The notes beneath the pieces were generated by a model that was given only the letters and a program-made list of their open reading frames with translations, did not search any database and had not been told where the DNA came from. A DNA stretch of 4,882 nucleotides from a virus (taxonomy: Duplodnaviria > Heunggongvirae > Uroviricota > Caudoviricetes), in the IMG/VR virus record IMGVR_UViG_2602041586_000004. The stretch is one strand, 5' to 3'. How positions within the stretch are numbered: position 1 is the stretch's first letter; each line of letters begins with the position of its first letter. This document shows, piece after piece, positions 1,577 to 4,882 of the stretch. Both the position numbers and the translations under genes were made by a program.

Positions 1577-1873
1577 ATGAACGCTTATTACATTCAGGAT
1601 CGTCTTGAGGCTCAGAGCTGGGCGCGTCACTACCAGCAGATCGCCCGTGAAGAGAAAGAGGCAGAACTGGCAGACGACATGGAAAAAGGCCTGCCCCAGC
1701 ACCTGTTTGAATCGCTATGCATCGATCATTTGCAACGCCACGGGGCCAGCAAAAAAGCCATTACCCGTGCGTTTGATGACGATGTTGAGTTTCAGGAGCG
1801 CATGGCAGAACACATCCGGTACATGGTTGAAACCATTGCTCACCACCAGGTTGATATTGATTCAGAGGTATAA
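1577..1873 (+). CDS. gam: Gam, RecBCD nuclease inhibitor, short form (GamS, 98 aa)
   Basis: [21 protein letters not shown]...[10 protein letters not shown] matches lambda Gam residues 41..138 from memory. AGGAG at 1565..1569, 7 nt before the ATG. Confidence 0.93.
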
Positions 1874-1878
1874 AACGG

Positions 1879-2664
1879 ATGAGTACAGCACTCGCAACGC
1901 TGGCAGGGAAGCTGGCTGAACGTGTCGGCATGGATTCTGTCGACCCACAGGAACTGATCACCACTCTTCGCCAGACGGCATTTAAAGGTGATGCCAGCGA
2001 TGCGCAGTTCATCGCATTGTTGATCGTCGCCAACCAGTACGGCCTTAATCCGTGGACGAAAGAAATTTACGCCTTCCCTGATAAGCAGAACGGCATCGTT
2101 CCGGTGGTGGGCGTTGATGGCTGGTCCCGCATCATCAATGAAAACCAGCAGTTTGATGGCATGGACTTTGAGCAGGACAATGAATCCTGTACATGCCGGA
2201 TTTACCGCAAGGACCGTAATCATCCGATCTGCGTTACCGAATGGATGGATGAATGCCGCCGCGAACCATTCAAAACTCGCGAAGGCAGAGAAATCACGGG
2301 GCCGTGGCAGTCGCATCCCAAACGGATGTTACGGCATAAAGCCATGATTCAGTGTGCCCGTCTGGCCTTCGGATTTGCTGGTATCTATGACAAGGATGAA
2401 GCCGAGCGCATTGTCGAAAATACTGCATACACTGCAGAACGTCAGCCAGAACGCGACATCACTCCGGTTAACGATGAAACCATGCAGGAGATTAACACTC
2501 TGCTGATCGCCCTGGATAAAACATGGGATGACGACTTATTGCCGCTCTGTTCCCAGATATTTCGCCGCGACATTCGCGCATCGTCAGAACTGACACAGGC
2601 CGAAGCAGTGAAAGCTCTTGGATTCCTGAAACAGAAAGCCACTGAGCAGAAGGTGGCAGCATGA
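1879..2664 (+). CDS. bet: Bet (Red-beta), single-strand annealing recombinase (261 aa)
   Basis: [38 protein letters not shown]... is essentially lambda Bet over its full length. Starts 5 bp after the gam stop, as in lambda. Confidence 0.96.
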
Positions 2665-3341
2665 TACCGGACATTATCCTGCAGCGTACCGGGATCGACG
2701 TGAGAGCTGTCGAACAGGGGGATGATGCATGGCACAAATTACGGCTCGGCGTCATCACCGCTTCAGAAGTTCACAACGTGATAGCAAAGCCCCGCTCAGG
2801 AAAGAAGTGGCCTGACATGAAAATGTCCTACTTCCACACCCTGCTGGCTGAGGTTTGCACCGGTGTGGCTCCGGAAGTTAATGCTAAGGCGCTGGCCTGG
2901 GGAAAACAGTACGAGAACGACGCCAGAACCCTGTTTGAATTCACTTCCGGCGTGAATGTTACTGAATCCCCGATCATCTATCGCGACGAAAATATGCGCA
3001 CTGCCTGCTCTCCCGATGGTTTATGCAGTGACGGCAACGGCCTTGAACTGAAATGCCCGTTTACCTCCCGGGATTTCATGAAATTCCGGCTCGGTGGTTT
3101 CGAGGCAATAAAATCGGCTTACATGGCCCAGGTGCAGTACAGCATGTGGGTGACGCGAAAAGATGCCTGGTACTTTGCCAACTATGACCCGCGCATGAAG
3201 CGTGAAGGCCTGCATTATGTCGTGATTGAGCGGAATGAAAAGTACATGGCGAGTTTTGACGAGATGGTGCCGGAGTTCATCGAAAAAATGGACGAGGCAC
3301 TGGCTGAAATTGGTTTTGTATTTGGGGAGCAATGGCGATGA
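2661..3341 (+). CDS. exo: Exo (Red-alpha), lambda 5'-3' dsDNA exonuclease (226 aa)
   Basis: [40 protein letters not shown]...GFVFGEQWR is near-identical to lambda Exo, with a few substitutions relative to my recollection. ATGA overlap with the bet stop. Confidence 0.96.
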
Positions 3342-3357
3342 CGCATCCTCACGATAA

Positions 3358-3771
3358 TATCCGGGTACCGCCTGTAAAGTGTTGCGTGATCAAATAGGCA
3401 AGCATCACAAATGGGTGTTTGTACATACCAAGGCGGCTAAGCGAGCAGATGGAACATCAACGCCTGCGGTCAGGAAGATGCGCATCGACAGCAAGACATC
3501 ATGGCTATCAGCTTGTCGTCGTGCAGGAATTGAAGATTTCCGTTTCCATGACCTCAGACACACCTGGGCAAGCTGGCTGATTCAGTCAGGCGTCCCATTA
3601 TCAGTGCTTCAGGAAATGGGCGGATGGGAGTCCATAGAAATGGTTCGTAGGTATGCTCACCTTGCGCCTAATCATTTGACAGAGCATGCGAGGAAAATAG
3701 ACGACATTTTTGGTGATAATGTCCCAAATATGTCCCACTCTGGAATTATGGAGGATATAAAGAAGGCGTAA
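3358..3771 (+). pseudogene. Tyrosine integrase, C-terminal fragment only (about 130 codons); no start codon, N-terminal and core-binding domains absent
   Basis: Frame opens at 3358 immediately after an in-frame TAA at 3355..3357. The ATG-less translation carries the H-x-x-R box ([11 protein letters not shown]) and the catalytic Tyr (VRRYAHL) but not the upstream box-I Arg region. The supplied ORF begins at GTG 3379, which is an ORF-finder artefact. It ends 15 bp before the argU 3' end, convergent with the tRNA as expected for a tRNA-targeting integrase. Confidence 0.85.
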
Positions 3772-3786
3772 CTGATTGAATTGTAA

Positions 3787-3863
3787 TGGCGCGCCCTGCA
3801 GGATTCGAACCTGCGGCCCACGACTTAGAAGGTCGTTGCTCTATCCAACTGAGCTAAGGGCGC
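3787..3863 (-). tRNA. argU: tRNA-Arg, anticodon UCU (77 nt including encoded CCA)
   Basis: Reverse complement is GCGCCCTTAGCTCAGTTGGATAGAGCAACGACCTTCTAAGTCGTGGGCCGCAGGTTCGAATCCTGCAGGGCGCGCCA. It folds as a cloverleaf: 7-bp acceptor stem, anticodon stem ACGAC/GTCGT, loop CTTCTAA with anticodon TCT, T-loop TTCGAAT. Confidence 0.92.
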
Positions 3864-3894
3864 GTTGATACCGCAATGCGGTGTAATCGCGTGA

Positions 3895-3922
3895 ATTATA
3901 CGGTCAACCCTTGCTGAGTCAA
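3895..3922 (-). promoter_or_regulatory. Sigma70 promoter for argU: TTGACT-N16-TATAAT
   Basis: On the minus strand, -35 TTGACT is at + coordinates 3917..3922 and a perfect -10 TATAAT at 3895..3900, with a 16-nt spacer. The -10 ends 31 nt upstream of the mature tRNA 5' end, consistent with a short processed leader. Confidence 0.6.
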
Positions 3923-4105: not shown

Positions 4106-4738
4106 ATGAAACCAACGTCGGTGATCATTATGGATACTCATCCTATCATCAGAATGTCTATTGAAGTTCTGTTGCAAAAAAACAGTGAATTGCAGATTGT
4201 CCTGAAAACGGATGATTACCGCATAACCATCGATTATCTCCGAACCCGTCCTGTTGATTTAATCATTATGGATATAGACTTGCCCGGAACAGACGGTTTT
4301 ACCTTCCTGAAAAGGATCAAACAAATCCAGAGCACAGTGAAAGTGTTATTTTTATCATCGAAATCAGAATGCTTTTATGCTGGCAGAGCGATACAAGCTG
4401 GTGCTAACGGTTTTGTCAGTAAATGCAATGATCAGAATGATATTTTTCATGCCGTTCAGATGATCCTCTCCGGATACACGTTTTTTCCTAGCGAAACGCT
4501 TAACTATATAAAAAGCAATAAATGTAGTACGAATAGTTCAACGATCACTGTGCTATCTAATCGTGAAGTGACCATATTACGTTATCTGGTTAGCGGATTA
4601 TCTAATAAAGAAATTGCCGATAAGTTATTACTTAGCAATAAAACAGTTAGTGCGCATAAATCTAATATTTATGGCAAGCTAGGTTTGCATTCAATTGTAG
4701 AGCTTATCGACTACGCCAAATTATACGAATTAATATAA
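4106..4738 (+). CDS. fimZ: FimZ, NarL/LuxR-family response regulator of fimbrial expression (210 aa)
   Basis: From ATG 4106: MKPTSVIIMDTHPIIRMSIEVLLQKNSELQIVL... with a receiver domain (phospho-acceptor Asp in IIMDIDLPG) and a C-terminal LuxR-type HTH (SNREVTILRYLVSGLSNKEIADKL...SAHKSNIYGKLGL). fimZ lies next to argU in E. coli K-12. The in-frame ATGs at 4043 and 4091 are probably not used. Confidence 0.88.
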   Translation: MKPTSVIIMDTHPIIRMSIEVLLQKNSELQIVLKTDDYRITIDYLRTRPVDLIIMDIDLPGTDGFTFLKRIKQIQSTVKVLFLSSKSECFYAGRAIQAGANGFVSKCNDQNDIFHAVQMILSGYTFFPSETLNYIKSNKCSTNSSTITVLSNREVTILRYLVSGLSNKEIADKLLLSNKTVSAHKSNIYGKLGLHSIVELIDYAKLYELI

Positions 4739-4760: not shown

Positions 4761-4882
4761 GGTGATGCTGCCAACTTACTGATTTAGTGTATGATGGTGT
4801 TTTTGAGGTGCTCCAGTGGCTTCTGTTTCTATCAGCTGTCCGGTGATGCTGCCAACTTACTGATTTAGTGTATGATGGTGTT
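4761..4882 (+). mobile_element. IS1 left terminus: left IR and insA start (GTG 4816), truncated after 81 bp, followed by a second IS1 left end running to the window edge
   Basis: 4761..4841 matches recalled IS1 positions 1..81 (ggtgatgctgccaacttactgat...cagctgtcc). 4842..4882 restarts with the same 41 nt. The insA frame from GTG 4816 reads MASVSISCP, then runs into the second copy and stops at 4861..4863. Confidence 0.85.
4761..4882. repeat. Head-to-tail direct repeat of the IS1 left end, 81-bp unit, 1.5 copies
   Basis: 4842..4882 is identical to 4761..4801. The first unit is exactly 81 bp. Confidence 0.8.

Follow-up and report, generated by a model that had tools for sequence, protein, structure and literature searches.

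A DLP12-type prophage at argU, probably grounded by a deletion that joins the sequence just past exo to the 3' part of the integrase gene

The loss of int, xis or the att sites has been reviewed as a route to 'grounded' prophages (PMC6379469), and DLP12 has been found in 74% of 638 Escherichia/Shigella genomes (PMC6379469). In E. coli K-12 this prophage keeps a full intD next to a truncated xis and excises at a frequency below 1e-5, that is, in fewer than 1 in 100,000 cells (PMC3105296). Excision of Qin and CP4-44, which have no active integrase, was undetectable in the same host (PMC3105296); Qin carries an inactive intQ, CP4-44 has no integrase, and in both the loss of recombination functions left the element trapped. 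The early-left operon of lambda runs gam-bet-exo-orf60a through to xis-int-attP, and in lambda-type phages about 1.2 kb of small genes (DUF1317, DUF1382, ZapA-like, TraR and DUF4222) lies between exo and xis, which is followed by int.

Here we analysed a stretch of 4,882 nucleotides (the window) from IMG/VR record IMGVR_UViG_2602041586_000004. We read it, with a probability of roughly 90%, as the attL (integrase-proximal) end of a DLP12-type lambdoid cryptic prophage at argU that was grounded by a deletion. Its features are as follows.

1-42: IS1 end
171-596: hypothetical-protein ORF of 141 codons next to the IS1 end, with no Pfam match; 'hypothetical protein' in RefSeq
between the 141-codon ORF and cIII: DUF2528 gene
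1212-1270: lambda cIII thermoregulator RNA element (Rfam RF01804, 88.5 bits), preceding an intact cIII ORF
between the DUF2528 gene and gam: cIII, then kil
1577-1873, plus strand: gam (host-nuclease inhibitor), ORF of 98 codons; Pfam Gam 1-98/98, E=3e-65
1879-2664, plus strand: bet (RecT-family single-strand annealing protein), ORF of 261 codons; Pfam RecT, E=3e-33
2661-3341, plus strand: exo (lambda exonuclease family), ORF of 226 codons; Pfam YqaJ, E=6e-30
3338-3397, plus strand: ORF of 19 codons at the exo stop; first 10 codons of lambda orf60a/DUF1317, then integrase DNA out of frame
3370-3771, plus strand: start-less integrase fragment (intD pseudogene remnant)
3772-3863, minus strand: attL region, a 15-bp spacer plus argU, arranged as in K-12 intD-argU-fimZ
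3787-3863, minus strand: argU tRNA-Arg(UCU) (ARAGORN; Rfam tRNA, 72 bits)
4106-4738: fimZ
from 4761: second IS1 end

The three Red genes, gam, bet and exo, are all full-length ORFs with full-length Pfam matches, and RefSeq annotates them as intact CDSs in strain 13P484A, where bet is labelled 'phage recombination protein Bet'. This agrees with the initial annotation, which had placed an intact recombination module beside the integrase stump. The exo stop codon occupies 3339-3341, and among the matches listed the nucleotide identity of exo to lambdoid phage exo ranges from 97.7 to 99.6%. No pL/N region was found within the window, since upstream of cIII and kil it holds only the DUF2528 gene, the 141-codon ORF and the IS1 end; the expression of gam-bet-exo from a window-type prophage is therefore uncertain. 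The cIII thermoregulator element and the intact cIII ORF are kept in this window that has no pL/N. The best sigma-70-like site of the window (TTGACT-16-TATAAT, 11 of 12 positions, 3922 to 3895 on the minus strand) lies just upstream of argU, where the argU promoter would be expected, and fits that assignment. At the far end, 81 bases of IS1 (4761-4841) are followed by the first 41 of them again (4842-4882 repeating 4761-4801). In the closest complete genome, NZ_OZ547461.1, IS1 comes directly after fimZ without such a restart; misassembly or a nested IS1 may account for it.

The assignment to DLP12 follows the arrangement known from K-12: the integrase gene ends beside the 3' end of argU with fimZ on the other side, and the 402-nt remnant differs from K-12 intD by a single base (3743, G/A). 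Insertion site, gene order and orientation (int-argU-fimZ) coincide in the two loci, their common parts are 99.5-100% identical in nucleotide sequence, and the left breakpoint is the same, 26 bp past the exo stop. They differ in what they have lost. K-12 DLP12 retains full-length intD and the last part of xis, which the window does not, so that the window has lost 853 bp more on the integrase side; conversely, exo in K-12 lacks its 5' 60%, and bet, gam and the immunity region are gone there, while exo, bet, gam, kil and cIII all persist in the window. SNP 3743 and the fimZ flank also differ between them, the latter being BL21-like rather than K-12-like in the window. A near-complete DLP12-type prophage at argU is present in the ST648 genome NZ_CP008697, with exo-bet-gam and intD modules like those of the window at 98-98.6% identity. 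It holds int, xis, DUF4222, TraR, ZapA-like, DUF1382, DUF1317, exo, bet, gam, the immunity region, O, P and ren, and further emrE, ybcK, the nin region with rusA, Q and the lysis genes; it also retains 2,209 bp that are missing in the window. Compared with lambda, exo and the next 26 bp are about 98% identical to those of lambda-type phages and the cIII thermoregulator is likewise present, but the window carries IntD, a P22-like integrase directed at argU, and nothing remains between orf60a codon 10 and int codon 254. The window resembles Qin and CP4-44 in the predicted outcome, and is distinguished from them by one clean deletion whose microhomology junction is mapped, and by the intact Red module directly beside the stump.

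To locate the point where lambda-type sequence ends, we ran a megablast of positions 2600-3900 against 50,697 phage genomes, with matches in 278 records. The best 30 of these 278 all align over 2600-3367 and end at 3367 (97.7-99.6% identity); matched phages include a lambda isolate (98.2%), phage 434, Stx phages and SfI. Lambda-type sequence thus continues for 26 bp past the exo stop (3342-3367), whereas the initial annotation had the endpoint right at around 3367 with a length of about 27 bp. From 3368 onward, several E. coli strains share the sequence at 99.5-100% identity; it comprises the 3' part of intD and then the flank with argU and fimZ.

Pairwise alignment to K-12 MG1655 mapped both endpoints of a difference of 853 bp, with an overlap of TACC at 3366-3369. 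The left parental site in K-12 reads ...ATATCCGGGTACC/TCACAAC..., the right one ...GAACGATACC/GCCTGTAAAG..., and the window reads ...ATATCCGGGTACCGCCTGTAAAG... across the junction (the slash marking the breakpoint). This alignment had been proposed as the check on the deletion endpoints, and it delivered them, but with K-12 as an already shortened reference that is itself without most of xis and has the same left endpoint. We also took the extent of the deletion from comparison with intact alleles. Against ST648, positions 16870 and 19080 are brought together, 2,209 bp are missing from the window and the overlap shrinks to TA (3366-3367), so that the microhomology that had been suggested as worth looking for is present in both comparisons, as TACC with the K-12 sites and as TA with those of ST648. 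The deleted interval runs from codon 10 of DUF1317 (lambda orf60a) to codon 254 of intD and, with ST648 as reference, removes DUF1317, DUF1382, ZapA-like, TraR, DUF4222, xis and the first 254 intD codons. The earlier reading that xis and the integrase N-terminus had been deleted after exo was correct for both, and incomplete in that about 1.2 kb of small genes has gone too. The ATG of the 19-codon ORF at 3338-3397 is the one that opens the DUF1317 gene in intact relatives. The xis of ST648, an ORF of 122 codons, lies entirely within the deleted interval, which leaves the window prophage with no xis of its own; alignments to both K-12 and ST648 bear out the claim that no xis, integrase start or N-terminal domain is present. 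For the intact relatives, RefSeq calls the xis-like gene an 'incomplete' 66-bp helix-turn-helix pseudogene (ST648, L005 3869-4237; also L003, L004 and L009). The 122-codon xis-like ORF there is open and overlaps the int start, and the 'incomplete' label is probably an annotation shortfall.

Comparison with intact alleles shows that a deletion, which we read as illegitimate and recombinase-independent, joined the TA located 26 bp past the exo stop to a TA in intD codon 254; gone with it are xis, the early-left small genes and integrase codons 1-254. A 62-base probe centred on the junction was found complete in 18 of 5,426 complete E. coli genomes, independently finished and coming from pigs, dogs, humans, chickens and water. 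Two IMG/VR contigs carry the same junction, with the junction-proximal 1.9 kb identical. Literature searches returned no description of the window-type allele.

Two other explanations of the joint were weighed against this deletion. That it reflects a sequencing or assembly error, or a frameshift in an integrase that is really full length, has next to no chance of being correct. The window does terminate in IS1, the terminus of which recurs in the final 41 bases, so parts of the contig may carry assembly artefacts; the junction, in contrast, is identical in the 18 genomes and the two IMG/VR contigs and is therefore real. Moreover, intD lacks 761 bp outright, which is one base short of its first 254 codons, and xis is missing altogether, with no frameshift, and the full-length integrase or xis hidden by a sequencing error that the initial annotation had named as its own refutation is not there. 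Lambdoid phages are highly mosaic, and their exo-to-int region comes in many arrangement classes, which would favour a joint inherited from a free phage in which exo naturally sat beside integrase sequence. We give this origin only a small chance: none of the 50,697 phage genomes spans the joint (0 records cover at least 80% of the 2600-3900 query), one third of an integrase could not support phage integration at argU, and both flanks are 99.5-100% identical to chromosomal DLP12 alleles that still hold the missing DNA. We thus retain the deletion in a resident DLP12-type prophage as the origin of the joint.

The in-frame integrase remnant spans 3370-3768 with its stop at 3769-3771; of the 387 codons of the DLP12 integrase IntD it retains the final 133. 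In full-length IntD, residues 184-355 match profile positions 1-171/172 of Pfam Phage_integrase, while the remnant matches only 75-171 and so keeps approximately the C-terminal 57% of the catalytic domain. What had been described as the catalytic C-terminus of a tRNA-site integrase is accordingly the C-terminal part of the argU-site IntD, but not the whole domain (Pfam 75-171/172). The HDLRH and RYAHL motifs, holding the H-x-x-R and the tyrosine, are kept; the ATGLR segment, in which the first conserved arginine lies, is lost, and so are the hairpin that follows it and the arm-binding and core-binding N-terminal domains. Judged by what a functional tyrosine recombinase needs, that is, a whole catalytic domain (PF00589) with the first conserved Arg, the Lys hairpin, H-x-x-R and Tyr, and the N-terminal domains with a start, the remnant has neither. 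From this domain content we infer that the stump is a pseudogene, predicted to be unable to make an active recombinase, and in 13P484A RefSeq labels it 'integrase, incomplete, missing N-terminus'. The reading frame is open from a GTG at 3379 to 3771 and the two motifs survive, which would allow a stump of 130-133 codons to be expressed with a function of its own, for instance as a domesticated or dominant-negative fragment. This is very unlikely, given that no in-frame GTG, TTG or ATG of the remnant is preceded by a ribosome-binding site, that no promoter-like site lies on the plus strand just upstream (a promoter and terminator scan gave nothing relevant near it), that half of the catalytic domain and all DNA-targeting domains are gone, and that RefSeq treats the fragment as a pseudogene.

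Without its own Int and Xis the element would no longer excise itself and would be fixed, or grounded, in the chromosome. By the precedent of the K-12 prophages that have no active integrase, the window prophage is predicted to be unable to excise by itself. Grounding by such a loss is an already known kind of event, and the remnant is already annotated as a pseudogene. Going by its sequence, attL (argU plus the spacer) looks intact, and IntD and Xis supplied in trans, for example by another prophage, could in principle act on it if attR survives. A query with the whole of argU matches one place in most window-type genomes and two in K-12, and there are hints that the attR copy is gone from window-type genomes, where its presence is doubtful.

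The copies of the window-type allele bear on its history. Around the junction, 13P484A and both IMG/VR copies match the window base for base. Among the IMG/VR contigs, L010 (IMGVR_UViG_2585427739_000004) differs from the window at 45 positions, all within 605-2882 (the cIII-bet-exo 5' region), and is identical from 2883 on. This suggests that its Red region was exchanged by homologous recombination with another lambdoid prophage after the deletion. A second origin of the junction through L010 was considered and set aside in favour of that later recombination, its differences being confined to the left of 2883. A single origin of the window-type allele is the simplest reading.

The only informative SNP in the remnant is at 3743, where G or A gives Gly or Glu near the IntD C-terminus. 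It is A in all eight examined carriers of the K-12-type junction (K-12 and LD27-1 included) and also in the intact allele P13-6, and G in all window-type copies, in TB06053, in the other intact alleles and in the other deletion alleles examined. This pattern implies that the window junction is probably not a second deletion in a K-12-type prophage; on this one SNP, then, it probably does not descend from the K-12 allele. It is more likely to have arisen separately at the same left breakpoint, from an intact ancestor (with a TA overlap) or from a TB06053-type ancestor (with a TAC overlap). Homologous recombination could blur this history, which may have consisted of one 2.2-kb step or of two steps through a TB06053-type or K-12-type intermediate.

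The left breakpoint of the window recurs in other junctions. The TA at 3366-3367 (CCGGGTA/) is an endpoint of at least five distinct junctions, listed here with the slash at the joint.

window: GGGTA/CCGCC, into int
K-12 and LD27-1: GGGTA/CCTCAC, into xis
TB06053: GGGTA/CAGGCAAC, in xis, 41 bp further upstream
FG31-1: GGGTA/TAGGGG, into a different integrase at a different chromosomal locus; intact form in SK1144
PK8276: the same TA serves as the right endpoint
further coordinates of this TA endpoint: L001 5167-5168; L006 5706-5707; L020 2530-2531; L023 about 2457

Re-use extends to other sites. At least five partners are joined to the xis site TA/CAGGCAAC: the site just past exo, sites in P and in the ZapA-like gene, another GGGTA within DUF1317, and an unassigned sequence from an IMG/VR contig. 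A TACC site in gam (window equivalent 1764-1767) has four, and sites in exo, P and the ZapA-like gene have two each. For a single TACC in exo the partner is P in K-12 but ren in strain 41, a single GTACC in P has exo as its partner in LD27-1 and xis in SCZE5, and the junction of strain F11 links two sites already used in SCZE5 and strain 41; the window equivalents of the re-used exo sites are 2687-2690 and 3062-3065. An inverted repeat matching at 8 of 9 positions, TACCGGGAT (2687-2695) and ATCCGGGTA (3359-3367), brackets exo. Both of its copies are deletion endpoints, the left one in LD27-1 and the right one in K-12, TB06053 and the window. The left site and the xis site, but no others, are related by an inverted repeat of 7 bp (GTAGGCG/CGCCTAC), and inspection by eye of the re-used sites for an extended motif or inverted repeats gave nothing consistent beyond TA plus C(C) on the retained side.

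We scanned IMG/VR for re-use with a pattern of a non-native base plus the right flank at three re-used sites and at three controls 7-10 nt away. Contig counts were 3, 3 and 2 at the re-used sites, some of the partners being new, and 0, 0 and 0 at the controls. A query of the left flank plus a non-lambda base, run against IMG/VR, JGI metagenomes and GTDB species genomes for further left-endpoint alleles, gave only window-type and K-12-type joints and one SNP variant. Read outward from TA, 13 of 20 distinct site-sides have a retained flank that starts with TAC, and 10 of 20 one that starts with TACC, against a background after TA in the region of 0.22 and 0.086, respectively (binomial P ~5e-5 and ~2e-6; ~4e-4 and ~6e-5 once two ascertainment-biased flanks are left out), values that apply to a motif spotted post hoc and to a set of alleles some of which come from a search ranking G before TA higher.

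These observations raise an alternative to an arbitrary microhomology deletion, namely that the breakpoint is one of a set of preferred TA sites (in a GTA/TAC(C) context) that an enzyme or a fragile motif re-uses in DLP12 decay. We hold this possible, at clearly worse than even odds. The left endpoint common to the window, K-12/LD27-1, TB06053 and FG31-1, the last in another integrase at another locus, and found again as a right endpoint in PK8276, argues for it, as do the many partners of the xis, gam, exo, P and ZapA-like sites, the silent controls in IMG/VR, the excess of TACC flanks and SNP 3743, which argues that the window and K-12 junctions are independent. The alleles could instead form a chain of nested deletions, and three xis-site alleles share one IntD protein allele, hinting at descent; yet a nested ladder too needs each deletion to start exactly at an old joint, which random microhomology deletion does not predict. 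Against preferred sites also stand the post hoc nature of the TAC(C) motif and the search favouring G before TA, at least five junctions in the same loci with other overlaps (TCCA, CA, TT, T and CCGTT), and the fact that we found no enzyme of such specificity. Our tentative formulation, which we would not bet on, is that a small set of TA sites, with TAC/TACC flanks and products that often read GGTACC or GTAC, has been re-used with different partners in at least two prophage loci.

To our knowledge, none of the following fits the motif convincingly: the ends and targets of IS1, IS3, IS5 and IS630, Xer sites, Hin-type invertase sites, the gyrase consensus, the TTAC of IS200/IS605, the GTAG of REP/RAYT elements and restriction enzymes recognising GTAC. 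Literature searches found no description of a TACC hotspot. Candidate activities are YbcK, a serine recombinase encoded by DLP12 for which a 2-bp crossover would be expected, a transposase specific for TA that would act on cryptic ends, and the RusA resolvase of the prophage, which would cut 5' of CC. RusA is known to prefer cutting 5' of CC at the junction crossover (PMC1636454); no strand geometry could be built with it that yields these deletions.

For a very common prophage such as DLP12, the window-type allele would be one more way of being locked in the chromosome, unsurprising in itself and useful for annotation and strain typing. The allele retains an intact-looking Red module, and Red modules of defective prophages are reported to be able to swap DNA with infecting phages (PMC3945230). 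If the re-use of TA sites is real, lambdoid prophage decay at these loci would reflect a site-preferring break-and-join activity or a fragile motif rather than random microhomology deletion, and it could help to explain how prophages are pared back over time and whether one particular enzyme has a part in this.
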